DNA of 54,383 bases from Candidatus Anstonellales archaeon (GTDB lineage Archaea; Micrarchaeota; Micrarchaeia; Anstonellales; J096): NCBI GenBank assembly GCA_038740615.1, contig JAVYLQ010000002.1:1-54383 (forward strand), read 5' to 3'. Below, piece by piece: positions 2,338-50,570 of this stretch (its first letter is position 1; the number at the start of each line of letters is the position of its first letter). The notes under the pieces were generated by a model. The model was not told the DNA's origin, did no database searches, and saw only the letters and a program-made list of their open reading frames with translations. A program made the translations under genes and the position numbers.

Positions 2338-2372
2338 AGATAATATTTAAATCTTTTCTTTTTATTTAATTC

Positions 2373-4830: not shown

Positions 4831-4833
4831 GTA

Positions 4834-5289: not shown

Positions 5290-5354
5290 AACGATTCTTA
5301 AATAATATAAAAAGCTATTTAAAAGTATCATATCCATATAAAAAAGGGATAACT

Positions 5355-6066: not shown

Positions 6067-6067
6067 T

Positions 6068-7049: not shown

Positions 7050-7054
7050 GGAGA

Positions 7055-13871: not shown

Positions 13872-13933
13872 ATCAGTGGTAGATCGCTCCCTTGGCATGG
13901 GAGAGGCCGGGGGTTCGAATCCCCCAGGGTCCA
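13862..13933 (+). tRNA. tRNA-Ala (anticodon GGC)
   Basis: GGGCCCT-TA-GATC..GATC-G-CTCCC-TTGGCAT-GGGAG-AGGCC-GGGGG-TTCGAAT-CCCCC-AGGGTCC-A. The G3:U70 identity pair is present. Confidence 0.9.
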
Positions 13934-13983
13934 ATATCTATACATAAGACATATTATTTCTTATAACAAATCAATCCGGATAG

Positions 13984-14057
13984 AGCCCCAGGAGGGATTT
14001 GAACCCTCGACCTACCGCTTACGAGGCGGTCGCTCTACCAGGCTGAGCTACTGAGGC
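13984..14057 (-). tRNA. tRNA-Thr (anticodon CGU)
   Basis: Identical to the tRNA-Thr at 5216..5289 except for anticodon position 34 (C instead of U). Confidence 0.9.
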
Positions 14058-14560
14058 ATAGATATCGATTCATTATAATATCTTATATTTTCCTTTAAAA
14101 TCTCTAACAGAGTTTTTCTATAATTTTCCATAACCGAATCTATATCTCTATAAATTATTGGATTGTATCTCGAGCGTATTTCTAATATATTACCAATCTC
14201 CTCATCGTAATTTATCACTATACGCTTCAACCTACTATCATCTGAAATTATCTTACGTCGTGTTAAATCGATCGCAATTCTTGATGAACTATCCTTTTTT
14301 AACACATACATAAGATCCTCCAAGAATTCTAATATATTTTGTATAAAATATTCTATATAGATTACTCTATGGACTGCAACATTGTCCTCAAGAGCAATCT
14401 CCTTTATCTGCTTATTAAAATTCTCACGGATTGAATTTAATCTCTCTATAGCATCTCCGATTGGAATGCTCTTATCCTCCAGAGTTCTCTTTATCTCTGT
14501 ATACGTATCTAGAAACAGTTTTTCTCTTGTGATACTATTATTTAATTTCTCTCTATTCAT
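14048..14560 (-). CDS. hypothetical protein (ORFan, helical)
   Basis: 170-aa ORF that overlaps the upstream 661-aa ORF by 8 nt. Its TAG stop is formed by tRNA-Thr positions 8-10. Confidence 0.5.
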   Translation of the reverse strand: MNREKLNNSITREKLFLDTYTEIKRTLEDKSIPIGDAIERLNSIRENFNKQIKEIALEDNVAVHRVIYIEYFIQNILEFLEDLMYVLKKDSSSRIAIDLTRRKIISDDSRLKRIVINYDEEIGNILEIRSRYNPIIYRDIDSVMENYRKTLLEILKENIRYYNESISMPQ

Positions 14561-16538: not shown

Positions 16539-16651
16539 AGTCTCACCTCTGAGATACGATTACAATAACTAGAGAGCAACATTCACTGATAATCTAAGTT
16601 GCTACCATTTTTGATAACATATATATCATATTAGTTATATCTGTTTGAATA

Positions 16652-16660
16652 TTTTTAAAA
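16652..16660 (+). promoter_or_regulatory. TATA-like box TTTTTAAAA upstream of tRNA-Ile
   Basis: Spans -32..-24 relative to tRNA position 1 at 16684. Confidence 0.45.
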
Positions 16661-16683
16661 TGTTTTGTTTTAGAATAAATTAA

Positions 16684-16758
16684 GGGCCTGTAGCTCAGCT
16701 AGGTACGAGCGCTCGACTGATAATCGAGAGGTCGTGGGTTCAAATCCCACCAGGCCCA
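16684..16758 (+). tRNA. tRNA-Ile (anticodon GAU)
   Basis: GGGCCTG-TA-GCTC..GAGC-G-CTCGA-CTGATAA-TCGAG-AGGTC-GTGGG-TTCAAAT-CCCAC-CAGGCCC-A. Confidence 0.9.
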
Positions 16759-16771
16759 TTGGTGGTGTGAT

Positions 16772-16924
16772 ATGGGTAAGATACCTGAGGCAAATGCAGA
16801 ATTGTTGGCTATAAAGATATGTTTAGATTGCAAAACTAAAAACAATATAAACGCAACTAGATGCAGAAAATGTGGTGGAACTAGGTTTAGGAAGAAGGAC
16901 TTAGCACCAAGAGTTAAGAAATAA
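16772..16924 (+). CDS. rpl40e: 50S ribosomal protein L40e
   Basis: Not in the ORF track (50 aa): MGKIPEANAELLAIKICLDCKTKNNINATRCRKCGGTRFRKKDLAPRVKK. CxxC...CxxC zinc ribbon and the L40e N-terminal pattern. GGTGGTG Shine-Dalgarno lies directly after tRNA-Ile. Confidence 0.85.
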   Translation: MGKIPEANAELLAIKICLDCKTKNNINATRCRKCGGTRFRKKDLAPRVKK

Positions 16925-16980
16925 TTCTTGAAAATTTAGTAGTAAATATAAATAAAAAAAGATTGGTTGTTAGAATTAAT

Positions 16981-17913
16981 ATGGCTTCAAAGTTTTCAAA
17001 TAAAGTTATTGAAGAAGCTTCAGAGAGAATAGTTAAAAAGTTAGAATATGTTATCTCCAAGGAGAATGAAGGTAGAATCTTAAAATCAGAGATTGATATT
17101 TCCAAAGATAGGGATATGATCAAAAGTATGTTTAGAGAGATACTCCAAAAATCTAAGGAGAATGCATATAGAGATTATTCAAGGTTGATCAGCAATGATC
17201 ATAAAAAATTTGAAGATCTATATGATGATTTAATGAAAAAGTTGTTCATAAATAGTGATGATTATCTAAGACCTAATATAAGGATAGGACATGATCTTAT
17301 GATATTCAACCTCACATATGTATTCCAACTCTATCTAGCAAAATTAGAGAAAAATCTCCCAGAGTATTTGATAAAAATTATGGAATTATTAAAGATGATT
17401 AATAATGTAAACTCTTATATGTATTCAATTATATCTGCATATGCTTCTAGGCTGGATGAAAGGAAATTAGATAAAATAAATATATTCAATAGTGAGGAAA
17501 TTGTTGTTCTGTCTTTTTCTATGAACTTTAACAAAAAATATTTAGAACTAGTTACTCCTGGTCTCTTTCAGACCGAAACCATCAACAATAAATATCTAGA
17601 AGAGAACGCCAAACATATAAATCTCACAAAACTAAATAATGATTCTGTAATAAGTTTATCAACCGCCACCTATGATTTTCTGATCAAACTAGCAAAACAG
17701 ATCAAAAGACTAGAGAATCTAGATTTAAATCAGAATACCATTACTTATAAGAATAAACAACTAAAACCTCTATTAGCTCTTGTAAGACATCTTGCAGGAC
17801 TTGGTGATATGGCTATTCGCATCAAAAAATTAGATGATGTAACTAGTCAAGGCATTCTGTATATGAACTTCATTGGATTAGATAATCCTCATTCAGATAA
17901 CATTACAGCATAA
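16981..17913 (+). CDS. hypothetical protein (ORFan, helical)
   Basis: 311 aa counted from ATG 16981. An ATATAAAT box lies about 30 nt upstream. The track start 16963 is a TTG. Confidence 0.5.
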   Translation: MASKFSNKVIEEASERIVKKLEYVISKENEGRILKSEIDISKDRDMIKSMFREILQKSKENAYRDYSRLISNDHKKFEDLYDDLMKKLFINSDDYLRPNIRIGHDLMIFNLTYVFQLYLAKLEKNLPEYLIKIMELLKMINNVNSYMYSIISAYASRLDERKLDKINIFNSEEIVVLSFSMNFNKKYLELVTPGLFQTETINNKYLEENAKHINLTKLNNDSVISLSTATYDFLIKLAKQIKRLENLDLNQNTITYKNKQLKPLLALVRHLAGLGDMAIRIKKLDDVTSQGILYMNFIGLDNPHSDNITA

Positions 17914-17916
17914 TCT

Positions 17917-17924
17917 TTTAAATA
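17917..17924 (+). promoter_or_regulatory. TATA-like box TTTTAAAT for ORF 17945
   Basis: Spans -28..-21 relative to the ATG at 17945. Confidence 0.4.
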
Positions 17925-17944
17925 GAAATATAAAAATATAATGT

Positions 17945-18685
17945 ATGTTAAAGAGTGATGGGGCATTTAAGGAGGATCTGAAAAAAGTGTTAGATGGGAT
18001 ATCTAATAGGATTGGAGAATTTAATATTGATAAAAATGTTGTCAATATCTCTAACTCTATATTGATACTTAATAAACATAAGAAAGAGGTTTTGGACCGA
18101 ATTAGAAAGCTATTGGAGGAGAATCGTGATAGATATAGGGACTTTTTGGACAGATTGACTAAGAGCAATATTCAGGAAATGCATGAGACTAATACAGGGG
18201 AAATATATGTGATAAATATCCCTTTAGATGAGATGATAAAAAGAAGTATATATCGAGAAGCACTTTACGATAATGTACGTTCGCAGAACCTCCAGGAATT
18301 GAATTATGAAATCTACAGACATTTATTATTAGATCTGCGTATCATACTAAGCTATACTAATTTTCTAATAGACGTTTTTGCCAACAGAGTTAGAGATGGG
18401 AACCTTAAAGACGGATTTGGTAAAAAAGAGGGACATATTCAAACGATCAATTTTCTACTAGGCTTTCTATCGCAAGAATTCCCAAAAATGGACGAGGAGC
18501 AGAGAAATCTATTTAGAGAATATCGAAAATTAATAGAAAACAATCTAAAAACTCTTGAAAACCCAGAGTATATTAAGGTTATCAGTAACTATACAGAATT
18601 GCAAAATACAAAATCCAGACTTGATGCAGAGATAGAAATAATGATGAAGGTTGAGCCTAAATTCATACCTACGCTCAAAGCTTAG
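17945..18685 (+). CDS. hypothetical protein (ORFan, helical)
   Basis: 246-aa ORF. Weak local resemblance to the preceding ORF (ENRDRYRDFLDRLTKSN versus ENAYRDYSRLISN). Confidence 0.5.
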   Translation: MLKSDGAFKEDLKKVLDGISNRIGEFNIDKNVVNISNSILILNKHKKEVLDRIRKLLEENRDRYRDFLDRLTKSNIQEMHETNTGEIYVINIPLDEMIKRSIYREALYDNVRSQNLQELNYEIYRHLLLDLRIILSYTNFLIDVFANRVRDGNLKDGFGKKEGHIQTINFLLGFLSQEFPKMDEEQRNLFREYRKLIENNLKTLENPEYIKVISNYTELQNTKSRLDAEIEIMMKVEPKFIPTLKA

Positions 18686-18686
18686 A

Positions 18687-18696
18687 TTTTTTAAAG
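18687..18696 (+). promoter_or_regulatory. TATA-like box TTTTTTAAAG upstream of tRNA-Gln
   Basis: Spans -31..-22 relative to tRNA position 1 at 18718, and directly follows the stop codon of ORF 17945..18685. Confidence 0.45.
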
Positions 18697-18717
18697 TATT
18701 ATATTATTAGTTAATTA

Positions 18718-18790
18718 AGCCCCGTCGTCTAGTGGTCCAGGACACCGGGCTTTGGACCCGGAGACCCAGGTTCGAATCCTGGCGGGGCTA
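18718..18790 (+). tRNA. tRNA-Gln (anticodon UUG)
   Basis: AGCCCCG-TC-GTCT..GGAC-A-CCGGG-CTTTGGA-CCCGG-AGAC-CCAGG-TTCGAAT-CCTGG-CGGGGCT-A. A1:U72 pair, as in archaeal tRNA-Gln. Confidence 0.88.
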
Positions 18791-18852
18791 TGCACATATT
18801 GTTTTAAAAAGCTTCTATAGATATATAATGAAAATCGATAGGTGGTGGGGTA

Positions 18853-19794
18853 ATGACTGATATTAGAAAACCTAGAAGAGGGTCTTTGGCTGTAAGACCA
18901 AGGAAGAGGGCAAAGCGCTTGATTTACAAGCTCAAACATATGAAAGTACCTGATAAATACACCTTATCTGGTTTTATTGGATACAAAGTAGGTATGGTTT
19001 CACTCAGTTTCAAGAAAACGGTTGATAAGATCGTTCAGACAGAAGTAGTAGCTGGAACTGTAATTGAGGTCCCTCCAATATTAGTGTATGGGATTAGGTA
19101 TTACTTAAGTGATGGTAAGGTTGTAGATGAGATAAGTGCTGACGAGAATATAAAGAAATTGCTAGGTATGAAAAGAACTCCTAAGTCTGTGAATATTGAT
19201 CCAAAAACCGTAAAATACGTGAGATTATTAGTTTTATCAGATCCTACTGCTACTGGAGGAGTGGAGGTAAATCATATATTCAGAGCAGAGTTGGATATTG
19301 TAATGCCCAGAGATTCTGTAGAAGAACAGATAAAACTAGCTAGAAATTATTTGGGAAAGAGTGTGAGATTTGCAGATGTATTTAAAGTAGGAGATATGGT
19401 TAATGTTGGAGCTGTAACCAAAGGTAAAGGTTGGCAAGGTGAGATCAAAAGATTTGGAGTTGCTAAACAGAGGAGAAAAGCTACTGGAAAAGTTAGACAT
19501 GTTGGTACTCTAGGTCCTTGGCATCCTCATTACGTGATGTATTATGTTCCAAGAGCAGGTCAGACAGGTTTTCATAACAGATTAGAATTGAACAAAACTA
19601 TTATGGTAATTTCCTCTTCTGATCTGAATATAAAATTTGATCACTACGGATTTGTAAAATCTGATTATGTAATAGTTAAGGGCAGTGTTCCTGGAACTGT
19701 TAAGAGACCTGTGATGTTAGGAATATCTAGACGGGGAATGTCAGAGGGAGCTGGGGTTAAAGAGGAACTCAAAGATATTAAGGTGATACTATGA
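18853..19794 (+). CDS. rpl3: 50S ribosomal protein L3 (uL3)
   Basis: RKPRRGSLAVRPRKRA N-terminus and TKGKGWQGEIKRFG motif. GGTGGTGGGG Shine-Dalgarno. Confidence 0.92.
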   Translation: MTDIRKPRRGSLAVRPRKRAKRLIYKLKHMKVPDKYTLSGFIGYKVGMVSLSFKKTVDKIVQTEVVAGTVIEVPPILVYGIRYYLSDGKVVDEISADENIKKLLGMKRTPKSVNIDPKTVKYVRLLVLSDPTATGGVEVNHIFRAELDIVMPRDSVEEQIKLARNYLGKSVRFADVFKVGDMVNVGAVTKGKGWQGEIKRFGVAKQRRKATGKVRHVGTLGPWHPHYVMYYVPRAGQTGFHNRLELNKTIMVISSSDLNIKFDHYGFVKSDYVIVKGSVPGTVKRPVMLGISRRGMSEGAGVKEELKDIKVIL

Positions 19795-20516
19795 AAATTG
19801 AGATTCTGAACCTTGATGGACAAGTTGTTGATTATCTGGATCTACCAGAACTTAGATATATAAGATCCGATCTTATTAGAAGAGCAGTACTCAGTGAAGA
19901 GAGCTATATGTATCAGCCTAAAGGTAATTATAGATGGGCGGGTATGGATACTTCAGCTAGGTTTGTAGGTAGAGAAGGTATATATGGTTCTTTGAAAGAT
20001 CAAGGTCAGGCTAGATTACCCAGAGAACTTTTAGGTGGAGGTAGATATGGTAGGGTTAGAATAGTTCCTCAGTCAGTTAAAGGACGAAGAGCCCACCCTC
20101 CAAAACCTGAGAAAATATTGATAGAAAAGATAAACAACAAGGAGAAGAAACTGGCTATGTTGAATGCAATAATTGGGGCTAAGCTGTTTGTTGTTAGAGA
20201 TTTGGATAGTGTGAGTAAAGTTAAAGATGGGAAAAGAGTTATAGAGAAACTCATAGGGGAAATAGATGCGGACAGAAAGAGGATAACTGGAGTTAGAAGA
20301 AAGAGAAAAACCAGAGCATACAAGGTACCGGTAAGAGTGACTGTTGTTACTGAAAACAATACCAAAGGTTTTAATAACATTCCTGGCGTTAGATGTAAAA
20401 CTGTGAAAAATCTTATGGTTAGAGATATTGCCCCTGGTGGAGAGATAAAGAATAGGAAACTTATAATATCTGAGAATGCTATGAGAGAGCTGCTATCTAA
20501 ACTAATTGATATTTAG
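19791..20516 (+). CDS. rpl4: 50S ribosomal protein L4 (uL4)
   Basis: Position after L3, and RFVGREGIYGSLKDQGQARLPRE...GRRAHPPK is typical archaeal uL4. Confidence 0.9.
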   Translation: MKIEILNLDGQVVDYLDLPELRYIRSDLIRRAVLSEESYMYQPKGNYRWAGMDTSARFVGREGIYGSLKDQGQARLPRELLGGGRYGRVRIVPQSVKGRRAHPPKPEKILIEKINNKEKKLAMLNAIIGAKLFVVRDLDSVSKVKDGKRVIEKLIGEIDADRKRITGVRRKRKTRAYKVPVRVTVVTENNTKGFNNIPGVRCKTVKNLMVRDIAPGGEIKNRKLIISENAMRELLSKLIDI

Positions 20517-20524
20517 GTGATACT

Positions 20525-20767
20525 ATGATAATTGCTATTCTAAGAACTGAGAAAGCTATGAATGATTTAATGAATAATAAATTGTATTTCATCGTAGATC
20601 TTAAGGCTACAAAGCCTCAGATCAGAGAGTTTGTCGAGAAGAACTTCAATGTAAAAGTAGAATCTGTGAGAACTCATATAAATATGAGAGGTGAGAAAAT
20701 AGCAATAGTGAAGTTAGCAAAGGATTATAATGCTAATGAAATATTGGATAAAATCACTATTGGGTGA
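20525..20767 (+). CDS. rpl23: 50S ribosomal protein L23 (uL23)
   Basis: TEKAMNDLMNNKLYFIVDLKATKPQIREFVEKNFNVKV is typical uL23. Confidence 0.9.
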   Translation: MIIAILRTEKAMNDLMNNKLYFIVDLKATKPQIREFVEKNFNVKVESVRTHINMRGEKIAIVKLAKDYNANEILDKITIG

Positions 20768-20772
20768 GTTGT

Positions 20773-21483
20773 ATGGGTAAGAGATTAAAACAGCAGGTTA
20801 GAGGTAAGGGAACTGGAAGATACAGAGTTCCGGATACAATCACAAAATATAAAGTAGAACTACCTAAATCAGAGAAGGCTTATATAGGAAAGGTGGTAGA
20901 CATCATAGATGATCCAGTTAGAACCGCTGTGATCGCAAAGATAGAATACGAAGGAGGAATATTCTATGTGCCTGCAGCAGAAGGTATATATGTAGGTAGG
21001 GAAATAGAGATAAACGGTCAAACTCCAAAGTTAGGTAATATACTTAAGTTAGAGAACATTCCAGACGGATACTATATTTATATGATTGAGAGAAGAAAGT
21101 TAGATGGAGGGAAGTACATAAGATCTGCTGGAGGATATGCAATAGTCCTATCTAGAGATGAGAAAGGTGTTTATGTAAAGATGCCTAGTAGGAAAGTTAT
21201 ATTGTTCCCCAAGGATGCTAGGGCAATTGTAGGAGTAGTGTCTGGAGGGGGATACCTAGACAAACCATTGGTTAAAGCTGGAAATGCATATTACAGATTT
21301 AGGAAATTGCATAGAATATGGCCTAGAAATAGAGGAGTTAAGATGTCTCCTTATGACCATCCTCATGGAGGTAAGCAACACCACGAGGGTAAAGCAACCA
21401 CTGTATCAAGAAATGCCGCTCCTGGACAGAAAGTAGGTCATATAGCTGCTAGATCTACTGGTAGGAAGAAGTCTAAATCATGA
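20773..21483 (+). CDS. rpl2: 50S ribosomal protein L2 (uL2)
   Basis: MGKRLKQQVRGKG N-terminus and SPYDHPHGGKQHHEG motif. GGGTGA lies before ATG 20773; the track start 20764 is an alternative codon. Confidence 0.92.
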   Translation: MGKRLKQQVRGKGTGRYRVPDTITKYKVELPKSEKAYIGKVVDIIDDPVRTAVIAKIEYEGGIFYVPAAEGIYVGREIEINGQTPKLGNILKLENIPDGYYIYMIERRKLDGGKYIRSAGGYAIVLSRDEKGVYVKMPSRKVILFPKDARAIVGVVSGGGYLDKPLVKAGNAYYRFRKLHRIWPRNRGVKMSPYDHPHGGKQHHEGKATTVSRNAAPGQKVGHIAARSTGRKKSKS

Positions 21484-23200: not shown

Positions 23201-23489
23201 GATCAATATCCCTGGATTTGATGATGAGATTGATTTTGAGAAAGAGGATATCTCAGTAAGAATTAAAATATACACAGAAACTTCAAAATTCAACAAATTA
23301 GTTACTGTAATTGCTGGAGTGGGTAAGAAAAACTTAGAGGAAGTAGCAAAGTTTCTGAAGAAAAAATTGGCATGTGGTGGTACTATCAGAGATGATGGGG
23401 CAATAGTGTTGCAGGGAGATCATAAAAAGAGAGTACCTGGATTGCTGAAAGAATTTGGTTACAAAGAGGAACAGTTTGAATTATTGTAA
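23193..23489 (+). CDS. sui1: translation initiation factor SUI1 (aIF1)
   Basis: VTVIAGVG...KKLACGGTIRDDGAIVLQGDHKKRVPGLLKEFGY is typical SUI1. TTG start overlaps the L29 3' end. Confidence 0.85.
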   Translation: MARINIPGFDDEIDFEKEDISVRIKIYTETSKFNKLVTVIAGVGKKNLEEVAKFLKKKLACGGTIRDDGAIVLQGDHKKRVPGLLKEFGYKEEQFELL

Positions 23490-25304
23490 CTTATAAACAT
23501 ACAAAGATCCGTTCTGATAAATAAGTTTGTAATTACTATCTATTTTAATTCTCTCATAGTTCCTATAATCAATTATGTAAACTCTAAATGTTTTGATATA
23601 GAATTCTCTTATAGCAGGGTCTAACCAACCATCTGCGGTTATATACAAAATTCTATTTGCATCTAATTCAGATTTACATTCTAAACAGATCAGGGGATCT
23701 CTTATGTATTGTCTGTATTCGTATCTAGATAAGTGTTTTATATTGGGTATTGTCGAACTGAATTCTGATGCGAAGAATCTGTTCAGATCAATAACTATGT
23801 ATTTTACTCTGTATTTGTTCAATAACTCCTGTGCTAGACTGCGATTTGATGAATATAAAATAATAGCAGCATCTAAATCTCTATTTGAGAAATTAAGAAA
23901 TGGTAAGTGGAATGATTGAGCCCATCTAGTTGCTACAACATTGTTTCCTGTGTATGCATTTAGAGCAAAAGCAATAGGTTTATTACTGAGTATTACACCT
24001 GGATCCTCAGATATTATCCTAATCGCTTCTGCGTATTCTGGAAAGAGATCTGTTAGGGTTAGGCTGTATTTCTTCAAATTTGTAAAGCTGCTTGTATAAG
24101 ATTCATATGTAAGATGGAGCTGTGCTAAGATGAACAACACTAATAACATACCATATTCGGATTTTCTGTATGGTATTGACAGTAAAATTAGGGGAGTTAA
24201 TACGAGTGAAGTTGTGTATGTAGGTACAGTATTGAATAGGAACAGATCTAGAATGGGTGATATTAATATTAGAACGGATGTGAGGATTATGTAATGATCA
24301 AATTCGTACAATTTCCTATCCTTGTATAAGCTATATAAATACGCCAAGATAACCCATATCTTCGACATCATCGATTCCGGAATGTATTTTGTGTATAGGA
24401 ACAACATGCCCTCAGAATTGGAATATACTGGAAAATCCAATCTGTTTCTAGGAAAGTATTCGTTGAACATATCTAGTCTGTATATCATATACAAACCTAG
24501 AGGTAATAAGAATAGGATTGGTATTACATCTTTGAATATATTATTTAATTTCTCCTGATCCATTAATCTACGGATGATATCGTATGAAATAAATATCAAT
24601 ACATATAGTAATAGTAGAAAGTGGGATATTGTTGATAGTAGAATGGCTAAAGCGTAATTACGTTTTAATATCAAATACAATACTATTGGACTAACAATAG
24701 ATATGGTGAAGTCAGTATATTTTAATATTACTGGGGTTAGAGATGATGCAACTATAAATACTAACATAGCCACTCCGTAAGATCCTCCTAATCTCAAACT
24801 GATGTAGTACCATATGATAGTTGAATATATTAAAATAGAAGATAGCAATTTCATAGCTGAAATGCCATCGATATTCATCAATCTCATTGTGATTACAACT
24901 AACCAAGAGTAGAGTGGGTTATAGGAGAACAATTTTCCCTCGTAATATTGGTTTCCAAAAATATCTAGAGTCCTGTTTACATAATTTATCTGCCCCAACT
25001 GAGCATAGTAATCCCCACCGAATACTGGTGAGGGGAGCTCCTTGAAAGATAGGAGAAATTGATATGAACTAGAGGAAAGAATAGAAGCTATTACAAATAC
25101 AATCCCTGTAAATAATCCTGGGATAAGATTGGATGACTTATAAGAATATATTCCAAGAATAACAATTGAGATAATGATACTTGGATTCAAATACAATATA
25201 TCATAAATATTGGTTGGATTGAGGTATAATAAACCTAACGTATTGATGATTATAGATATTACTCCAATCTTCTCCAGATCTGTCCATCGAAGTATTCTAT
25301 CCAT
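23481..25304 (-). CDS. large polytopic membrane protein with C-terminal soluble domain (GT-C-like architecture, family unassigned)
   Basis: 607 aa: roughly 12 predicted TM helices followed by a domain of about 180 aa. No WWDxG (AglB) motif seen. Overlaps the upstream transglutaminase-like gene by 46 nt. Confidence 0.55.
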   Translation of the reverse strand: MDRILRWTDLEKIGVISIIINTLGLLYLNPTNIYDILYLNPSIIISIVILGIYSYKSSNLIPGLFTGIVFVIASILSSSSYQFLLSFKELPSPVFGGDYYAQLGQINYVNRTLDIFGNQYYEGKLFSYNPLYSWLVVITMRLMNIDGISAMKLLSSILIYSTIIWYYISLRLGGSYGVAMLVFIVASSLTPVILKYTDFTISIVSPIVLYLILKRNYALAILLSTISHFLLLLYVLIFISYDIIRRLMDQEKLNNIFKDVIPILFLLPLGLYMIYRLDMFNEYFPRNRLDFPVYSNSEGMLFLYTKYIPESMMSKIWVILAYLYSLYKDRKLYEFDHYIILTSVLILISPILDLFLFNTVPTYTTSLVLTPLILLSIPYRKSEYGMLLVLFILAQLHLTYESYTSSFTNLKKYSLTLTDLFPEYAEAIRIISEDPGVILSNKPIAFALNAYTGNNVVATRWAQSFHLPFLNFSNRDLDAAIILYSSNRSLAQELLNKYRVKYIVIDLNRFFASEFSSTIPNIKHLSRYEYRQYIRDPLICLECKSELDANRILYITADGWLDPAIREFYIKTFRVYIIDYRNYERIKIDSNYKLIYQNGSLYVYKLQ

Positions 25305-26275
25305 TTCTGATGGATCACCATTAATATACGATTGGGTTCTTTAGCACATGTTGGTGAATCACACACTATGTATTTTCCACCTAGATCACCAAGAGTTATT
25401 CCTGTAAGAGGATCTATCACATATCCCCAGGTGAGATTCTGATACGATTGGACTGGGATAGATGATATTGCAACACCACAATGTCCTGATTTTTCTGTAT
25501 TAAAACATACCACTACAAAATCATACTCACTAACTTTTGCAAATAGCTGAGGGGTATATCCTCTTAAAATCACATCTCGATATACTATATAATTATAATA
25601 TGGGGTATCTAGAATGCTCACTGGTCTTGTTCCCTCTAGATACATATTTGGATTCAGTGATCGCAATAATTCTCTCAACATCAATGCATGCTGTTTACAA
25701 TCTCCATATCCTTGCTCAATAAATTTTTTCAAGGTATGAAACTCTGATATCCTATTATTATAACCGTATTCCATTCTGGTAACATAGACTGCACATGGTA
25801 TCTTTAGATTAAAGCCGTCACTACATTCTCTCAGAATTTTAGATCTAAGATAGGGGTCAGGATATTCTGAGTTCTCTCTAAACCATTGTGTGAGATTTTT
25901 AAATATTAACCACTCTTCCTGCTTACTGTGATTTGCTATGATTTCATCTATCATCTTCAGAGTAGAATTCATCTGCAAGCTCAAGTTGTTATATTTTTGA
26001 AGTAGCTCCTGATATTCCATTTCCAATTTCTCCTTCTCATTACTTAACTCTGAATACTGATTAGAGAGGTTTTTAATTATCTCTGATGCTATAATATTTT
26101 GAGATTTTTCCTGTGCTAATTTATCATGAAGTGAATTTATAGTTATGTAAAGTTCTGTTATTGTAGTATTATATTCCTCTCTGATTGAGTTGATAGTTGT
26201 TAAGTGTAAATAAACAACAGATATAATCGCAGATATCAATATTGCTATGATTAAGTATATTGACTGATAGTTCAT
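25259..26275 (-). CDS. membrane-anchored coiled-coil protein with transglutaminase-like (Cys-His-Asp) domain
   Basis: N-terminal TM, a coiled coil of about 100 aa, then GYGDCKQHA ... SGHCGVAI ... YVIDP. The spacing resembles the transglutaminase/cysteine-protease core. Confidence 0.5.
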   Translation of the reverse strand: MNYQSIYLIIAILISAIISVVYLHLTTINSIREEYNTTITELYITINSLHDKLAQEKSQNIIASEIIKNLSNQYSELSNEKEKLEMEYQELLQKYNNLSLQMNSTLKMIDEIIANHSKQEEWLIFKNLTQWFRENSEYPDPYLRSKILRECSDGFNLKIPCAVYVTRMEYGYNNRISEFHTLKKFIEQGYGDCKQHALMLRELLRSLNPNMYLEGTRPVSILDTPYYNYIVYRDVILRGYTPQLFAKVSEYDFVVVCFNTEKSGHCGVAISSIPVQSYQNLTWGYVIDPLTGITLGDLGGKYIVCDSPTCAKEPNRILMVIHQKWIEYFDGQIWRRLE

Positions 26276-43137: not shown

Positions 43138-43140
43138 TAA

Positions 43141-43151
43141 TTTTTTAAAAA
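43141..43151 (+). promoter_or_regulatory. TATA-like box TTTTTTAAAAA for the six-gene membrane operon
   Basis: Spans -34..-24 relative to the ATG at 43175. None of the five downstream junctions has room for a separate box: 1-nt spacers or overlaps. Confidence 0.45.
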
Positions 43152-43174
43152 GTGTTTAAATAATATAAAAACAG

Positions 43175-44713
43175 ATGGGAATTATCGATATCATAACCAG
43201 AAATTTATTCATGCTGGCTCTAGGTCTGGGAATAGGCCTAGCTATAGCTATTTTGATATACTTCTACAATCTGATATTCAAGAAAGATCAGGCTAAATCC
43301 TTAGATGCAGTTAAAGATGTTATTATAGTTGTTTTCTATCTAGTATTACTATTTGCAATTGATCTTGCATATAATCTATTCCTATCGGCATGGTTAGGTA
43401 TCCCTGTAAGTCCGGGTGATAATCTGAGGATTGCTGAGGCAGTAATCTACAAAGATATCGATAAATTCAGGGAGACTCTGATGTATATATATGTAGCGGA
43501 TTTTGTGATTAATCTCTTTGGATCATTTTCAGCACATTTACATGCAGCAATAAACCCAGAGATGACCAAGTTGCAAGGATTATCCCCCCTAAATAGAGTA
43601 ATGGAAGGTATGACTTCATTATTGGGGAAGGCTAGTTTGGATCCTTACAAGGCAGAGATGGGGATTGATTATTTCTATAAGATGAATTCTGCAATACAAC
43701 TGCTCTACAATGCTTCATATGGTCTGTTCCTAGTTCTTGTATATAAATACATCAAACTCACAGTTATAACCTACTTACCTCTAATCATGTCCATCTTTAT
43801 TCCTCTAGGTCTAGTTCTAATATTCATACCTATTACTAGAAAGGTAGGAATGACTATTGTTGGATTGGCAGTAACACTTTACTATCTCTTCCCAGTGTTT
43901 ATAATATATTCAGACACTGTTCTTAGGAATATGCCCGATTTTGATCACAGATATATTTCAGCGTATATCTCTCCTACTATAGTAGAGTTTTTGGATAAGA
44001 GTTCAGGATCTAATCCTGCCACAAGAGTAGGTTATAAGTACGCATTTATAGAGAGAGAACAGGCAATACAGAGATCTCTGGATTATATATTCTTAGAACA
44101 GGATAGGAGCAACATCATGGAGCCGGATCAGAACAATCCTGTAGGGAAGCTGGAGAAAGAAGGAGTAGGTGTGTTTCATATATATTCATTTGTAGATGCA
44201 CAATCAGTATGTGACCCAGGGACTAATGACAGAGAAGTTTGTAGAGAATATCAAACAGCTAACATTGGTGACTACAGATCGGAGAATGTATTAGCTCCTC
44301 TTGGATCTCTGTATGCAAATACAGTAAAATACTCTGCCATAGTTAGAGTAGGAACTGCTATCAAAGAGGTTATATCCACAGTATCTATAACAGCCTCTCT
44401 AAATCCGTTTGCAGTTGCACTGATAAATATACTTGGAATGGCTATTAATATGTTCCTGTTTGCAATCCAAATAACCCAGGTGTTACCTATCCCTGGATTG
44501 AGCCAAATCCTATATGGAGCTCTAAATATCCCATTCTTACCATTTCTGATGTTTAGAACTGCATTAGAAGCAGCATTGATAGCCTACAAGATAATTATAT
44601 ATGGATCTATTACTATCTTTTTAGATATCTTCCTGATTATCACTGGATATAGGGCAGTAGCATCTATAATAGGAGCTGAGCAGAGAATACTAGGTTTGGA
44701 GAAGGTGCTGTAG
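43175..44713 (+). CDS. polytopic membrane protein, paralog 1 of 6 (unassigned family)
   Basis: 512 aa. Core motif PLGLVLIFIPITRKVGMTIVGLAVTLYYLFPVFIIY. Loop of about 130 aa with C-x9-C. C-terminus ...GAEQRILGLEKVL. Confidence 0.75.
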   Translation: MGIIDIITRNLFMLALGLGIGLAIAILIYFYNLIFKKDQAKSLDAVKDVIIVVFYLVLLFAIDLAYNLFLSAWLGIPVSPGDNLRIAEAVIYKDIDKFRETLMYIYVADFVINLFGSFSAHLHAAINPEMTKLQGLSPLNRVMEGMTSLLGKASLDPYKAEMGIDYFYKMNSAIQLLYNASYGLFLVLVYKYIKLTVITYLPLIMSIFIPLGLVLIFIPITRKVGMTIVGLAVTLYYLFPVFIIYSDTVLRNMPDFDHRYISAYISPTIVEFLDKSSGSNPATRVGYKYAFIEREQAIQRSLDYIFLEQDRSNIMEPDQNNPVGKLEKEGVGVFHIYSFVDAQSVCDPGTNDREVCREYQTANIGDYRSENVLAPLGSLYANTVKYSAIVRVGTAIKEVISTVSITASLNPFAVALINILGMAINMFLFAIQITQVLPIPGLSQILYGALNIPFLPFLMFRTALEAALIAYKIIIYGSITIFLDIFLIITGYRAVASIIGAEQRILGLEKVL

Positions 44714-44714
44714 A

Positions 44715-45788
44715 ATGTTGTCGATCATAGATAGTTTTGTTGTAGCGTTAGTGATGATAGTTGCTGGGTATATATTGTTACTATTTGTCATGGCTAGACT
44801 TAGTAGTAACGAAGAGTGGAAACAGAATTTCAAGATAGAGTTGCAGCAGCTACTATTGAGCTTGCTATTACTAATAGGTGTATATGCAATAGCAGGTTTT
44901 GTTACTACAATATATCAATACTATACAGGTGGATTGGATGCATTCAACTACCTCTCCATTCAACTAATATCCATAATGAAAAACTTACACTTCTATGCGT
45001 CTCATCTAACTCTTTCAGCATCTCTAATGAGAATGTTTGGAGAGTTTACAAATATAGGTTATCCGCATGGTTCTTATGGATCAGCTAGATTACCCACTAC
45101 TCCTGGTGTAGATCTGTTAGCGTCAGTTACTTTTCAGATCAGAGATCTGCTTATGATAGCTACAGGTGGTTTGGTTATGCAATCTATACTTTTTGATCTT
45201 ATAAAGAATCTAGCACTTACTGTAGTATTGCCCATAGGGATTGTTTTGAGAATCTTGCCAATCACTCGACAATTTGGAAATGAACTGATCGGTCTGAGTG
45301 TTTCATCATATATAATATTACCCATCATATATTTGGTTTTCTTCCAAACCATTCAGGAAGTTGCTAATGAGCGAGGAGGGTTTATAGAAAGATTTGTTGA
45401 TGGATATCTTGCAATAGGTGACACCAGATTGATAGAGCCAGATAAGATAATCGTTGATATACAGAAAGATCACCAGGCTAGTATTCAGGACAGTATGGAT
45501 AGGTTGAACAACTATTTTGATAGGTATAAATCAGAGATTGATTCAGAAGTAATGGGAAGTACTGCTGACGAGCATAAGCTCTATAGATTCTTTGAAACCT
45601 ATTTAACTACTGGGTTGGTATTAGGATTTCTAAATGTAGGATTCCCCATATCATTTCTATTTCTTTACTCTATATTACTATATGCCTCAGGATTCTTAGT
45701 ATTTGGATTTGGATTACCAGGATTTGCCATAGCAATCACACTGACAGCTGCTAAGAGTATTAGAGATTCTCTGGAGAGATTGGTATGA
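44715..45788 (+). CDS. polytopic membrane protein, paralog 2 of 6
   Basis: 357 aa. Core motif PIGIVLRILPITRQFGNELIGLSVSSYIILPIIYLV. C-terminus ...SIRDSLERLV. Confidence 0.75.
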   Translation: MLSIIDSFVVALVMIVAGYILLLFVMARLSSNEEWKQNFKIELQQLLLSLLLLIGVYAIAGFVTTIYQYYTGGLDAFNYLSIQLISIMKNLHFYASHLTLSASLMRMFGEFTNIGYPHGSYGSARLPTTPGVDLLASVTFQIRDLLMIATGGLVMQSILFDLIKNLALTVVLPIGIVLRILPITRQFGNELIGLSVSSYIILPIIYLVFFQTIQEVANERGGFIERFVDGYLAIGDTRLIEPDKIIVDIQKDHQASIQDSMDRLNNYFDRYKSEIDSEVMGSTADEHKLYRFFETYLTTGLVLGFLNVGFPISFLFLYSILLYASGFLVFGFGLPGFAIAITLTAAKSIRDSLERLV

Positions 45789-46972
45789 ACCCAATTATAG
45801 ATGGGGTTGCTCCTATTATAGGAATATCGATTATGATATATGTCATAGCCTATCTTGTAGGAAGGGTCTTGAACAAACCTGATATACCTGCCTTTATCAA
45901 CATGGAGCTCCTATCGTTGATAATTTTCATAATTCTATTAGTAGTGTTGTTGTATATGTTGGATTTTGCAGTTGATATAACTATATCGAATCTTAATCCT
46001 GATGCAAAGTCTGAAGTATGTGACAAATATGGAATCTCTGTATCAAGATGTCATGTTGCTATAGCAGGATATTTTCTAGAGAGTGTACTTAGAGAACTTA
46101 CAGATTATTATATACAACTAAACGCAGTTCTTCTAACTACTAATTTTGTAAAGCAAACTTATTCTGTGAAAGCAATTCAGGGAGATAAATTCGTAAAGCT
46201 GAACATGAATCCATTTATATTCATACCCTCACTGTACATAGAACCTATAATTGGATTGGTTCAGACGATGTTGCAGTTCGCTATAGCACAGTTCATCGTT
46301 CTTTGGTATATCACATCTCCGCAGTTTTTCATAGGTTTCTTGACTTTAGGAATTGTTCTTAGATTATTTGCTGTAACCAAATCGGCTGGTGGATTGATAA
46401 TAGCTCTAGTTATAGGTTTATATTATGTATTTCCAATGGCATATGTTCTGATGGATGTACACTACAGATATTCATATCCTGGTACTTATGGATTTGATAA
46501 GATAAATACTTATAGAGTTACTGATCATCTCCTATCTGTATTTGGAATCCCATTTGGAGATCGATTAGATGCGGCCATAAATGCCATATTGAATGTAGAG
46601 AGTAAGCCCATTGATCCTACCGATCCTGATTCAGTAGTTAGTAGTTTAGGTGCTGCTCTCAGTAACATGGCTAGCATAGCTAAAGCGGTTATAAAGATTG
46701 CTACTGTATTAGGTGCTATGCTATCAATATATACCCTCTCCTTTTTACCGCCTGTAGCTATAGGATATACTCTTGTAGGAGATGCTGTTCCAGATATAAT
46801 GCGTAGTATTATTAATATGCCTATTATTCTATTAAACATCTACACCGAATTTTTTATAATATTTGCAGTACTAATATACATATCTCTAATAAGCACTGTG
46901 GCATTCGTTAAGACACTATCCCCAATATTAGGTGGTGACGTTGAAATTGCTGGTATTACTCGTTTTATATAG
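45785..46972 (+). CDS. polytopic membrane protein, paralog 3 of 6
   Basis: 395 aa. Core motif TLGIVLRLFAVTKSAGGLIIALVIGLYYVFPMAYVL. C-terminus ...LGGDVEIAGITRFI. Confidence 0.75.
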   Translation: MNPIIDGVAPIIGISIMIYVIAYLVGRVLNKPDIPAFINMELLSLIIFIILLVVLLYMLDFAVDITISNLNPDAKSEVCDKYGISVSRCHVAIAGYFLESVLRELTDYYIQLNAVLLTTNFVKQTYSVKAIQGDKFVKLNMNPFIFIPSLYIEPIIGLVQTMLQFAIAQFIVLWYITSPQFFIGFLTLGIVLRLFAVTKSAGGLIIALVIGLYYVFPMAYVLMDVHYRYSYPGTYGFDKINTYRVTDHLLSVFGIPFGDRLDAAINAILNVESKPIDPTDPDSVVSSLGAALSNMASIAKAVIKIATVLGAMLSIYTLSFLPPVAIGYTLVGDAVPDIMRSIINMPIILLNIYTEFFIIFAVLIYISLISTVAFVKTLSPILGGDVEIAGITRFI

Positions 46973-48212
46973 CGTCCTATCATTGGCCTCCTCATGTGAC
47001 GATGAGGGATTTATTAGTCAGGAGTGTATTGAGAGAGATATTTATGGTAAGTTTGATGAGAATCTTGTGTATAGTGGATTTAAAAAGGTGTTTTTAGATG
47101 CGAGAAATACTGCTCTAAATGTGTTAGATAATCTAATCGTAAATGTAATAGGTCCGTATACATTCTGTAAAAGCACTAATCCTGTAGATGTATCCAATCT
47201 TTTGAACACAGTTGGAATAATAGCATTCATATCGTTGCTTCTCGTATACATTCTAAATGCTATTGCATCTATCTTTGGATTACAATGGAGAATATCTCTG
47301 TTGGATGAGGCGTTTCAAGCTCTATTAACCATATTAGTAGTAATACTGATAGTAGGGGTTGTTAATTACTATGCTTATAATAGCATATTCGTTCAGGCAA
47401 AACAGTATGTGGTTAATATAATTATAAATTTCTCATTCTTCTCCATGCTGCTTAAGACTATTGAAACTATGTTAGTAGCTCTATCAAATATTACAATCCC
47501 ATTTGGTCCTCCAGATGCTAGAGGAATTTTTGGGGTATCATTCTCCCAATTATTCACAATAGTATTCAAATCTTTTGATGTGATAAAAGGATTCTTCAAT
47601 CTAGCTATATTAGAGTATGTATTTAAACTATTCCTCTTATGTATAGGTCCAAGAATAATAATTGATCTCCTTCTTCCCATAGGCGCACTCATGAGAGCAT
47701 TCTACTTTACTAGACCTGGGGGGAATGTGCTCTTAGGTATCTCAATCGCATTTATCGTAATATACCCTCTGATAATGTATATCTATTCAAAGATATATTC
47801 GCAGATCTCCTACATATGGGAAATAGATCTTGCTGAAGCTGCATACAGAATGGTTATCGCTGCTATCATGGGAGCCATATCTTCAAAATTGATCCCTGCA
47901 GCAGCCAGAGCTCTCAGATCATCCACATTTGATACTCTTAGAAATCTAATTAACATAAAGAAAGTTTGGGATGCTCTGAATAATTTTGCTCATATAATTA
48001 GTATGAACAGTTTTGGTGTTGGTGCTGTAGTAGGTCTATTGTATTTCCTACCAGCTCTGATGTATATAATATTTGGATATTTGCAATTAGCTCTGGTATT
48101 TGCAGTAATACTAGGACCATTAGCTCTGTATTTTACCGTATCATTAACAGGTCAGATAAGTAGAGCTCTTGGTACTGAAATAAATATTGCTGCTCTATCG
48201 AGGTTGATATAA
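46932..48212 (+). CDS. polytopic membrane protein, paralog 4 of 6, with N-terminal signal-peptide-like segment
   Basis: Core motif PIGALMRAFYFTRPGGNVLLGISIAFIVIYPLIMYI. C-terminus ...LGTEINIAALSRLI. AGGTGGTGA Shine-Dalgarno inside the paralog 3 3' end, so the likely start is TTG 46941, giving MKLLVLLVLYSVLSLASSC. Confidence 0.7.
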   Translation: MVTLKLLVLLVLYSVLSLASSCDDEGFISQECIERDIYGKFDENLVYSGFKKVFLDARNTALNVLDNLIVNVIGPYTFCKSTNPVDVSNLLNTVGIIAFISLLLVYILNAIASIFGLQWRISLLDEAFQALLTILVVILIVGVVNYYAYNSIFVQAKQYVVNIIINFSFFSMLLKTIETMLVALSNITIPFGPPDARGIFGVSFSQLFTIVFKSFDVIKGFFNLAILEYVFKLFLLCIGPRIIIDLLLPIGALMRAFYFTRPGGNVLLGISIAFIVIYPLIMYIYSKIYSQISYIWEIDLAEAAYRMVIAAIMGAISSKLIPAAARALRSSTFDTLRNLINIKKVWDALNNFAHIISMNSFGVGAVVGLLYFLPALMYIIFGYLQLALVFAVILGPLALYFTVSLTGQISRALGTEINIAALSRLI

Positions 48213-48213
48213 G

Positions 48214-49587
48214 ATGAATATCGAGAAAAATATTGATGCTAATCAGATTCAGATCATGGTCAAGGATATGATCGATAGTATATCTGATACATGTACTGAT
48301 CCGATTAATGATAGATGTATTGATGAGAAACAAACATTGGCTGAATCTTTTGAGGCTCTGAAACCACAGATAGGATTCTTCAGTAAAGCTATAGAGACTG
48401 CCGTAGATAAGATATTTGGTAATCTCTATAGATTAGGAGCAGGTACGAAAATATTCGATGATAAGTACTGCCCCACTGTACAGAATTTAGGATTTGTGAC
48501 AAACTACTTTGGTCTAGCCGTAATACTATTACTATCATATCTCTTTATAGAATTCATAGCTAGGATTCTAAATAACACCAAATACACTGCTCTAGCTAGA
48601 AGGGAGATAATGGAAATTATAATAATCATTCCTCTGCTAATCGCTCTTCTCAATCTACCATGTTTTATATCTATAAATGATAATACACCACTCCATACCA
48701 AATCACTACTGTATATACATTCTGCAATTGTATCTTCTATGATATCCCTGATCCCCCTATCTTATTACGCAGCAACTGTAGGAGCTCATGCTGTTATGAT
48801 AGTGCAGAATCTAGGAGGGGGAGCTCCACAGACATTGCCCCTCTCATATCAATACTATGAATCCTCACTATCCTTGAGCAAACAGGTCGCATCATTCTTA
48901 ACATTATCTTTCATTTGGATAGGGACATTTGCATTCATGTATGACATCTTCACCTATGGATTTGTAAAATACCTATTACCTTTAGCACTTCTACTTAGAT
49001 TCATACCATTCACTAGAAGTCTAGGGGGAGGACTCATAGGATTGATAATAGCTACAAATCTATTCATACCAATTATCCTATCAATCAACTATGAAATCAT
49101 AAAGATGTTTGGGGCAGGATATTTCTATTATAATAATGGTAATGTAACCTTCAAATTCAACCCATGGTTAGAGATGGCTATACATATATTTGGAGCATTC
49201 CTAATCCTAATGAGCTCTCTGTATATATTAACAGGTTTTAGATTGTTTATAGATATACGAAATGTGATAAGCAGATTCAAAATATGGCAGGCTACTAGAG
49301 AAGGAATGAAAAGGATGTTGGCATCTCTGATAGGAGCAGCAGGAGGAGCTGCAGCAACCACCTTAGATCTATTTCTAGCTATGAGAGTGCTGTCTACATC
49401 ATCACTAAGGGTATTTGCATTCCAGATTCCTCTATTAATAATTATAGCAGTTATAATCGTATCTGCTATAATCTTCAATTTACTCCTCCCCACAGTATCA
49501 TTACTCTTCCTCACATCAACAATAAAATACATGTCAGCTATATTTGGAGATGAATTTGATCTTGCTAATCTGACGAGGTTGATATAA
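48214..49587 (+). CDS. polytopic membrane protein, paralog 5 of 6
   Basis: 457 aa. Core motif PLALLLRFIPFTRSLGGGLIGLIIATNLFIPIILSI. C-terminus ...FGDEFDLANLTRLI. Confidence 0.75.
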   Translation: MNIEKNIDANQIQIMVKDMIDSISDTCTDPINDRCIDEKQTLAESFEALKPQIGFFSKAIETAVDKIFGNLYRLGAGTKIFDDKYCPTVQNLGFVTNYFGLAVILLLSYLFIEFIARILNNTKYTALARREIMEIIIIIPLLIALLNLPCFISINDNTPLHTKSLLYIHSAIVSSMISLIPLSYYAATVGAHAVMIVQNLGGGAPQTLPLSYQYYESSLSLSKQVASFLTLSFIWIGTFAFMYDIFTYGFVKYLLPLALLLRFIPFTRSLGGGLIGLIIATNLFIPIILSINYEIIKMFGAGYFYYNNGNVTFKFNPWLEMAIHIFGAFLILMSSLYILTGFRLFIDIRNVISRFKIWQATREGMKRMLASLIGAAGGAAATTLDLFLAMRVLSTSSLRVFAFQIPLLIIIAVIIVSAIIFNLLLPTVSLLFLTSTIKYMSAIFGDEFDLANLTRLI

Positions 49588-50570
49588 TGGACGAGTATCA
49601 GGTTGTTGCCATAACCTTCGCACTAATAGGAGTAATAATCGGTATAATCCTCTATCAATTGTCCAAAATATTCAATCTTGGGGGTCTGAAAAGATATTCT
49701 GAGATGTTCATATGGGAAGCAGGAGTTACAGTTCTCTTAGCCCTGTTCCTATTTGTTATGATAGATAGATTAAATAATTTCCTATTCGATATATCTCAAG
49801 AGATGTTCAAAACTATTGGTAAGGATATCTCTGGGGTTAATCCTAAGACACCCATGGCTGCTGCTAGAGTTGTTTTGAATGAATTGATAAATAGTTGTTA
49901 TCTTAGAACATACGGGGCATTGTTGATGGTTCAGGCACTCTTTGAATCTGTTGGAATGTCCATAGCTAGTGTTGGTGCGGAGAATACTAATCTACCTACT
50001 GCAAGCTTAGCCTTTGGAACTATATATATATCAGACCTTCTGAAGATAATGTTTTTCCTGGTTTGGAGCAGTATGGCAATGTTTAAACTCATGGTATTCT
50101 TCTCTGCATACTACCCATTTCTTATAATGCTAGGAATTATACTTAGAGCGTTTGAACCCACCAAATCTCTGGGGGCATACTTGATAAGTCTGGGTATTGG
50201 ATTATATGTAGTTCTGCCAATGAGTTATAATATAGGAATTGTGCTGAATTATAACGATTTACTCTGTTCATTACCTAAGAGAATACAGAGTGATGATACT
50301 CTGGGAATGGGTTATGCAAATGCTTTTGATATAGGAGAGAATTCTAGAAGCTTTGTAGCAGTGTCATCGGTCATCTCTATGTTTGTCTCGATATTCCTAT
50401 TAATAACCAATCCATCTACTCTGGTTAGTTTCATATATTCAATAATGGCTCTATCATTTATAGCTCCTCTGATTGCATTCATATTTGCTCTATCATTCGT
50501 GAATATCTCCACTACTGCACTTGGAGGAAGGATTAGTGAAGTAGGAAGAGGTCTATTTAGATTAGTTTAA
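49587..50570 (+). CDS. polytopic membrane protein, paralog 6 of 6
   Basis: 327 aa. Core motif MLGIILRAFEPTKSLGAYLISLGIGLYVVLPMSYNI. C-terminus ...LGGRISEVGRGLFRLV. TAATG overlap with paralog 5. Confidence 0.75.
   Translation: MDEYQVVAITFALIGVIIGIILYQLSKIFNLGGLKRYSEMFIWEAGVTVLLALFLFVMIDRLNNFLFDISQEMFKTIGKDISGVNPKTPMAAARVVLNELINSCYLRTYGALLMVQALFESVGMSIASVGAENTNLPTASLAFGTIYISDLLKIMFFLVWSSMAMFKLMVFFSAYYPFLIMLGIILRAFEPTKSLGAYLISLGIGLYVVLPMSYNIGIVLNYNDLLCSLPKRIQSDDTLGMGYANAFDIGENSRSFVAVSSVISMFVSIFLLITNPSTLVSFIYSIMALSFIAPLIAFIFALSFVNISTTALGGRISEVGRGLFRLV

Follow-up and report, generated by a model that had tools for sequence, protein, structure and literature searches.

Mrp antiporters and complex I are built of several related membrane subunits, which are encoded in fixed-order operons and assembled in fixed stoichiometry, and the Rickettsiales carry tandem arrays of enlarged VirB6 paralogues. 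Anchors of the surface layer (S-layer) of the SlaB type are single-pass proteins. VirB6, a polytopic protein of seven long helices of which five are hydrophobic, builds the base of a stalk as a pentamer (PMC9259494). For the S-layer protein of Micrarchaeota an unidentified membrane anchor was suggested by Gfrerer et al. (10.1101/2021.04.28.441871), and cryo-electron tomography (cryo-ET) of the Micrarchaeon ARM-1 has shown an unassigned barrel-shaped complex beneath the S-layer at the site where intercellular (host) nanotubes enter (PMC11329633). Here we describe a locus at positions 43175-50570 (+) of a 54,383-nt stretch of DNA (the window) from a metagenome-assembled genome (MAG) of Candidatus Anstonellales, an order of Micrarchaeia (Micrarchaeota) in the DPANN kingdom Nanobdellati, so that an earlier note on this DNA, made from the letters alone, was right to ascribe it to a reduced DPANN archaeon. 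The locus is one operon of six tandem genes (the hexad), and profile comparisons identify its products, p1 to p6, as homologous proteins, ancient paralogues of one undescribed family. In exact-sequence look-ups in Candidatus Anstonellales MAGs all six are annotated as hypothetical proteins.

With VirB6/TrbL proteins (PF04610) the hexad proteins share a polytopic build of several long, mostly hydrophobic helices, but the hallmark of the hexad family is an arginine-rich turn together with a C-terminal peptide, and VirB6 is a homo-pentamer whereas the hexad has six fixed paralogues. The likeness to the Mrp and complex I antiporter-like subunits is that one operon of fixed gene order codes for several related membrane proteins, and a fixed stoichiometry of the hexad could be proposed from these systems by analogy only; there is no similarity to them in sequence or fold, the hexad subunits all belong to one family, and no soluble or energising subunit accompanies them. 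Very long transmembrane helices projecting past the bilayer are also found in the transmembrane domains of type IV ABC exporters and in TTYH (Tweety) proteins, from which the hexad proteins differ in structural comparison (E at least 0.2, TM-score at most 0.23, rmsd 15-25 A) and in lacking a nucleotide-binding domain or profile match. An S-layer anchor of the SlaB stalk type would be comparable as the membrane partner of large secreted surface proteins in the same phylum, and differs in being single-pass while the hexad is a set of six-helix paralogues; no S-layer domain (e.g. PF05123), nor any other Pfam match, was found in the two hexad-adjacent giant proteins that were scanned.

Raw pairwise similarity among p1-p6 is weak and limited to one block, and in a six-way alignment this core block and the C-terminal tail stand in register. 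Profiles were made for each position from four sequences, that is, the window protein and its counterparts in three orthologous loci (56-69% identity). Profile-profile probability reached 96.8% (E 2e-10) for the paralogue pair 3-6, the maximum of all pairs, and was 88% for 2-5, 83% for 2-4, 80% for 4-5 and 68% for 1-2. A six-way profile searched against 1.84 billion representative proteins found 1,867 clusters (50% identity) at E ≤0.001, 370 of them at E ≤1e-10, which puts the size of the family at no less than 1,867 clusters at that identity. An independent hidden Markov model (HMM) of the family, made of 81 distant homologues only with the window sequences excluded, matches all six window proteins with E values from 7e-23 to 2e-56. 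The paralogy that the earlier note had proposed from an alignment by eye is thus beyond chance.

Across 143 distant members the consensus of the core is LPxGxxLRxFxxTRxxGGxLIAxAxxxYxxxP and that of the C-terminus SxxLGGxxxIxxLxRLI. The shared core claimed by the earlier note is therefore present in these distant members as well as in the six-way alignment; the core helix-turn-helix LPxGxxLRxFxxTRxxGG...P can be recognized in all six window proteins, with the reservation that in p1 the first conserved R is replaced by I. The common tail claimed for all six holds in part: the peptide LGGxxxIxxLxRLI is clear in p1 and p3-p6, while the tail of p2 is short and degenerate, and in the 45 arrays described below the tails at position 2 are not conserved family-wide. 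The four cysteine pairs (C-x7-10-C) are there as described. The proteins p1-p6 have 2, 0, 2, 4, 4 and 2 cysteines, respectively, and every one of them is conserved in the three orthologous sets (Table 1).

To see how this arrangement is distributed, one genome per GTDB species was scanned with the p3-type tail peptide P[IL][LI]GGD[VI]EI, a scan which says nothing on other phyla, and its matches together with the genomic contexts of distant members gave a set of 60 loci. Taxonomic breadth was not read from a word-indexed protein search with alignments, since this gave nothing beyond close orthologues of the first sequence. The 60 loci are labelled Micrarchaeota, Micrarchaeia, Anstonellales or Burarchaeum, save three MAGs labelled 'ainarchaeum', which we read as Iainarchaeum, and some archaea without a name; the matches of the tail-peptide scan include no cultivated Micrarchaeota. 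Exactly six tandem members, as counted with the independent HMM, are present in 40 of the 45 arrays that are not cut by a contig end, and the five remaining arrays resemble split open reading frames (ORFs) or a locus end. The core and tail signatures are position-specific across these arrays (the tail of position 2 excepted). When the window hexad was compared with other loci, the position-wise best matches fell on the diagonal for all six positions in L003, L007, L006 and L013, for five in L046, for four in L005 and for three in the distant L035 and L038. Two complete or partial hexads lie on different contigs in six MAGs (the pairs are L017+L037, L021+L043, L036+L067, L038+L046, L039+L055 and L040+L050). 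In one of these MAGs the hexads L046 and L038 correspond to each other in all six positions, so that the hexad was duplicated as a whole unit after the six paralogues already existed. In the second hexad type gene 3 is giant (1,300-1,760 aa), and a giant protein with a lipobox and many Cys is encoded downstream. Fixed order, a copy number of six and duplication as a unit are the pattern expected of six distinct subunits of one assembly, and not of the birth-and-death of independent paralogues.

Junctions between the genes follow the same rule. In the window they measure, in order, +1, -4 (ATGA), -41, +1 and -1 (TAATG) nt, and each of the five junctions is an overlap or a gap of at most 10 nt in 35-41 of the 45 arrays; such tight junctions suggest translational coupling. 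The six same-strand tandem ORFs and their junctions are as the earlier note gave them, with gene 4 at 426 or 424 aa instead of 'about 423', and the fixed-stoichiometry hetero-oligomer that it proposed fits the count of six in 40 of 45 arrays, the orthology by position and the tight junctions, a fit that comes from comparative genomics and not from biochemistry. The overlap of genes 3 and 4 is retained at 35-38 nt in L001-L003 and L007. In the window and in these four loci one stretch of DNA, read in two frames, encodes both the highly conserved tail of p3 (DVEIAGITRFI) and the signal-peptide hydrophobic core of p4 (overlap at 13795-13832 in L001, 13768-13802 in L002, 13752-13789 in L003 and 6913-6947 in L007).

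AlphaFold2 models of p3 and p6, built with an alignment of 150 sequences, are confident and all-helical (pLDDT 85.4 and pTM 0.77 for p3; pLDDT 86.8 and pTM 0.81 for p6) and have the same order of helices. Two hydrophobic helices come first, and an extension of the second forms a helical hairpin with a return helix; then follow a pair of helices connected through the arginine turn, a variable loop, a further two long hydrophobic helices and the tail. Each hexad protein is accordingly predicted to have about six long hydrophobic helices, an arginine-rich turn (LRxFxxTRxxGG) and a conserved C-terminal peptide. The eight-residue core turn has a mean net charge of +2.5, and the two large loops of -1.9 and -3.6. 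A signal peptide is usual at the start of position-4 proteins and is found in some position-5 proteins, often with a lipobox-like SGC or FGC, and since these proteins start in this way the segment ahead of the first helix would lie outside. The earlier note had seen a signal-peptide and lipobox-like start in p4 alone; within the window only p4 starts with a signal-peptide-like segment, although its lipobox is imperfect and such starts are common at position 4 throughout the family. In arrays with an enlarged gene 3 (1,175-1,761 aa) the insertion follows the core hairpin, in the loop of helices 4-5. All window cysteines would be on the outer side, in the N-terminal segments of p4 and p5, at outer helix ends and in loops 2-3 and 4-5, and their even and conserved numbers are consistent with disulfide-type pairs in outer loops. 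Because of the charge, the signal peptides, the placement of cysteines and the gene-3 insertions we infer an outer N-terminus, a cytoplasmic arginine turn and two large variable loops outside. Given six spans, the C-terminal peptide would also be outside, a point made uncertain by the merely moderate hydrophobicity of the fifth helix.

The family is new in that no relative is detectable by profile, sequence or fold comparison, and a link to VirB6-like proteins might yet emerge from a future sensitive comparison of structures. Scans of the six window proteins with Pfam and NCBIfam, as well as a Pfam scan of 81 distant family members, gave nothing above noise, the PHROG scan gave matches only at E ≥0.037, and a profile of the family alignment had no match at E up to 10 among all PDB sequences, as the earlier note had expected in seeing no recognisable family. 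Foldseek searches with p3 against PDB and BFVD and with p6 against PDB gave no match at E ≤0.001. Several candidates were tried and rejected. ABC exporters, BAR domains, TTYH and designed bundles among the Foldseek matches are noise from long helices; for the transmembrane domain of type IV ABC exporters in particular, Foldseek E values were at least 0.23 and TM-scores at most 0.17, there was no match to ABC_membrane or ABC_tran in Pfam, and the operon has no ATPase. Membership in SecD/SecF (RND superfamily) was dismissed, as none of the six proteins matches SecD_SecF_C or Sec_GG while genuine SecF and SecD proteins encoded elsewhere do. Two distant p3-type proteins came near the cut-off of NnrU (PF07298; 24.4 and 20.5 bits against 24.7) with their first two helices only, which we regard as compositional; no window protein matches it. 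A membrane protein of phages or mobile elements was rejected on the PHROG E values given above, on BFVD Foldseek matches at E ≥0.5 and on the lack of any p3-type relative in IMG/VR contigs. No description of the hexad was found in the literature on archaeal uncharacterised membrane proteins, DPANN protein families, membrane paralogues of DPANN or Micrarchaeota, the evolution of Micrarchaeota or their S-layer, and it is likewise not described in that on type IV secretion, Anstonellales and cryo-ET of the Micrarchaeon-host co-culture.

The genomic neighbourhood points to the cell surface. A protein of at least 600 aa with a signal peptide is encoded no more than two genes from the hexad in 25 of 50 loci, compared with 4 of the 254 more distant genes of these loci. 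The linkage is due to two giant families that recur: one, low in Cys and about 1,000-2,200 aa long, is usually divergent and upstream of the hexad (22 loci), and the other, Cys-rich and lipobox-like, lies directly downstream (13 loci). Both the hexad type and the giant family differ between the two arrangements, which argues for a functional tie between hexad and giant proteins. The giant neighbours, which have no match in Pfam or among PDB sequences, reach 2,716 aa, and one family has 30-77 Cys; examples are found at 1924-7497 (-) in L035, 1075-7503 (-) in L020, 17892-22247 (+) in L005 and 12811-20958 (+) in L049. SecF-SecD genes directly follow the hexad in about ten other Micrarchaeota loci. 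Near the hexad in eight loci, upstream of it in six, a protein of ~140 aa is also encoded, which has Cys in its N-terminal part (CIICGEE...C) and a hydrophobic helix in its C-terminal part (for example at 6208-6630 (+) in L038; no Pfam match).

From these results we propose that the hexad may encode a hetero-oligomeric membrane platform of six subunits which serves giant surface proteins, a reading to which we give about an even chance of being right. That the six proteins form one complex is likelier than any particular function. One copy of each paralogue would assemble into a single, probably ring-like platform in the cytoplasmic membrane, whose outer loops would carry Cys pairs of the disulfide type and, in certain lineages, insertions that exceed 1,000 aa. 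This platform would work with giant secreted or lipid-anchored surface proteins, which it could anchor, or help to export or assemble, or it could be the membrane base of an envelope or host-interface structure. Several observations weigh against such a platform. The window and its closest relatives have no giant surface protein adjacent to the hexad, which is flanked by housekeeping genes only. The linkage to giant proteins and to SecDF is partly clade-specific synteny, so that the 50 loci do not count as independent. On which side the C-terminal tail lies hinges on the fifth helix being membrane-spanning, and the hydrophobic fraction of this helix is only 0.55. A bolder version, in which the hexad would be the pseudo-six-fold membrane core of an envelope-spanning apparatus specific to Micrarchaeota and Iainarchaeota and would form, with its giant partners, a symbiont-side complex that docks to the host or serves as a conduit for contact with it, we consider unlikely. 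The barrel-shaped complex of ARM-1 (PMC11329633) could be named by analogy as an example of such a structure.

The six proteins might also form a hetero-oligomeric channel, a lipid scramblase or an uptake machine, in which the ring would move lipids or metabolites and the giant partners would reach the host. Conserved arginines at the interface of membrane and cytoplasm and long hydrophobic helices that exceed bilayer length would suit this role, and the linkage to giant surface proteins, the host dependence of many DPANN archaea and the position of the ARM-1 barrel where host nanotubes enter (PMC11329633) are in accordance with it. However, the comparisons with ABC exporters and TTYH (TM-score ≤0.23, E ≥0.2) matched no transporter fold, the membrane helices showed no conserved polar or charged positions other than the interface motif, and there is no energising component; the operon has no ATPase or binding protein, as the earlier note stated, and none lies beside it. 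Anstonellales are reported to be comparatively complete in their biosynthesis and to possess, among others, the mevalonate pathway to lipid precursors (PMC12892359), and for this reason obligatory lipid uptake is not evident for them. The linkage of the hexad, together with the expansions of its ectodomains, points to the cell surface but falls short of showing a pore, a junction or uptake, and the part in cell-cell contact or bulk uptake that the earlier note had suggested is a conjecture. A channel, scramblase or uptake machine appears improbable to us.

The earlier note had further drawn an analogy with VirB6 while seeing no homology, and this proved correct at the level of sequence, with a weak and non-significant echo in structure. 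The corresponding explanation would make the hexad a very remote VirB6/TrbL-like stalk base, a hetero-oligomeric cone of helices at the inner-membrane base of a conduit for secretion or uptake or of a filament, comparable to the VirB6 pentamer of type IV secretion or to CedA of archaeal DNA import. The PDB matches of the p6 model with the top TM-score and probability are indeed R388 TrwI/VirB6 (8rtd_L with TMq 0.34, TMt 0.39, E 1.2 and probability 0.54; 7o3v_F/G with TM-scores of 0.27/0.32), and the enlarged VirB6 arrays of Rickettsiales resemble the enlarged gene 3 of some hexads. Nevertheless, these matches have Foldseek E values of 1.2-2.3 and TM-scores below 0.4, where a shared fold takes about 0.5, designed helical bundles score alike, and VirB6 is not among the Foldseek matches of the p3 model. 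PF04610 matches neither the six window proteins (E up to 1) nor the 81 family members (E up to 0.01), and hhalign gave the family profile a probability of 0.45% against TrwI and of 0.15% against a profile of 37 TrwI/VirB6 sequences, each of which carries PF04610. VirB6 homology was consequently rejected at the sequence level on these PF04610 and hhalign results. Neither the flanks of the hexad in the window nor the genes that recur beside it in the 50 loci, which are those of giant surface proteins, SecF/SecD and housekeeping functions, include a VirB4-type ATPase, a VirB2-like pilin or other type IV secretion components such as VirB3/5/8, not every neighbour having been profile-scanned. The resemblance to VirB6 is of a general kind only and membership is not supported, and we regard a remote VirB6-like base as quite improbable. 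That the six are independently acting permeases or enzymes, e.g. polymerases of glycans or surface polymers or flippases, which are merely clustered, is very improbable: tandem arrays of transporters and of GT-C or Wzy-like enzymes are common and variable outer loops could mirror different substrates, but the copy number of six, the fixed order and position signatures kept over deep divergence, the duplication of the whole unit, junctions suggestive of translational coupling, a conservation that is highest in the cytoplasmic turn and the terminal peptide and not in acidic motifs of outer loops, and the lack of any match, in Pfam or by fold, with the GT-C, Wzx/Wzy, MFS or RND families all speak against it.

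The features of the window are collected in Table 1. The flank upstream of the hexad holds genes of a thioredoxin-like protein, a class-Ib aminoacyl-tRNA synthetase, ribosomal protein S19e and a dsDNA-binding protein, and the downstream flank those of seryl-tRNA synthetase, RtcB and an NAD-dependent epimerase; in the Anstonellales lineage the hexad genes sit amid housekeeping genes, which we count as vertical inheritance. The A/T-rich region ahead of gene 1 is a possible promoter of a leaderless or short-leader operon transcript. The earlier note had called its TATA-like box the sole one, and a scan with TTTAWATA agrees in that this region holds the only + strand match upstream of any hexad gene. 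Over the whole window, however, 28 matches to the motif stand against 24 expected, which is no enrichment, and the box was given no evidential weight because its frequency is not above chance. Within the hexad genes, or antisense to them, lie ORFs of 90-134 aa that most likely arose as by-products of A/T-rich coding sequence and are not genes. Three further window ORFs of 661, 607 and 338 aa, for which Pfam gave no match, show no relation to the giant proteins that neighbour the hexad in other loci.

Table 1. Features of the 54,383-nt window; positions are those of the window, and hairpin coordinates are given in residues and nucleotides.
Feature	Positions	Strand	Core hairpin	Conserved Cys	C-terminal tail	Basis and remarks
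Possible promoter region	43140-43174	+				A/T-rich, TATA-like boxes at 43142-43151 and TTTAAATA at 43155-43162; motif match only
Hexad gene 1 (p1, 512 aa)	43175-44713	+	aa 206-240 (nt 43790-43894)	C346/C356, in the long loop behind the core hairpin	..ILGLEKVL	ORF; family HMM E 3e-27; orthologues 63-67% identical, same length
Hexad gene 2 (p2, 357 aa)	44715-45788	+	aa 169-203 (nt 45219-45323)	none	..SIRDSLERLV	ORF; family HMM E 1.3e-40
Hexad gene 3 (p3, 395 aa)	45785-46972	+	aa 183-217 (nt 46331-46435)	C79/C89, invariant, in the loop joining membrane helices two and three	SPILGGDVEIAGITRFI, highly conserved	ORF; family HMM E 1.9e-56
Hexad gene 4 (p4, 426 aa from GTG 46932, or 424 from TTG 46938)	46932-48212	+	aa 245-279 (nt 47664-47768)	four	..AALSRLI	ORF; family HMM E 1.1e-38; N-terminal signal-peptide-like segment ending ..LASSC (L-A-S-S-C, imperfect lipobox)
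Hexad gene 5 (p5, 457 aa)	48214-49587	+	aa 252-286 (nt 48967-49071)	four	..ANLTRLI	ORF; family HMM E 3.2e-34; 91-aa hydrophilic N-terminal region with CTDPINDRC
Hexad gene 6 (p6, 327 aa, shortest member)	49587-50570	+	aa 177-211 (nt 50115-50219)	two	..GLFRLV	ORF; family HMM E 7.2e-23
Shine-Dalgarno-like AGGTGGTG	46919-46926	+				inside the end of gene 3, just ahead of the gene 4 start
Overlap of genes 3 and 4 (41 nt)	46932-46972	+				p3 tail and p4 signal-peptide core on the same DNA in two frames
Probable SecF (putative)	2373-3314	+				just upstream of SecD
SecD	3298-4830	+				Sec_GG motif; 38 kb from the hexad
661-aa protein	14553-16538	-				soluble; no Pfam match
607-aa protein	23481-25304	-				several hydrophobic segments; no Pfam match
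338-aa protein	25259-26275	-				N-terminal hydrophobic helix, 7 Cys; no Pfam match
ORF within hexad genes	44816-45088	+				90-134 aa class
ORF within hexad genes	46525-46839	-				90-134 aa class
ORF within hexad genes	47393-47692	-				90-134 aa class
ORF within hexad genes	49128-49532	-				90-134 aa class

A large share of archaeal diversity belongs to the DPANN archaea, most of which are uncultured. The hexad is a large, phylum-wide and strictly organised six-gene module without a detectable relative, kept even among compact translation genes, and it offers concrete candidates for a DPANN envelope machine. Even if its role is structural, it would still be a new membrane-protein fold family and an ancient six-fold set of paralogues evolving as a unit, and if the hexad does form a symbiont-side complex for docking or a conduit, it would give the first genetic handle on the interaction of DPANN archaea with their hosts.

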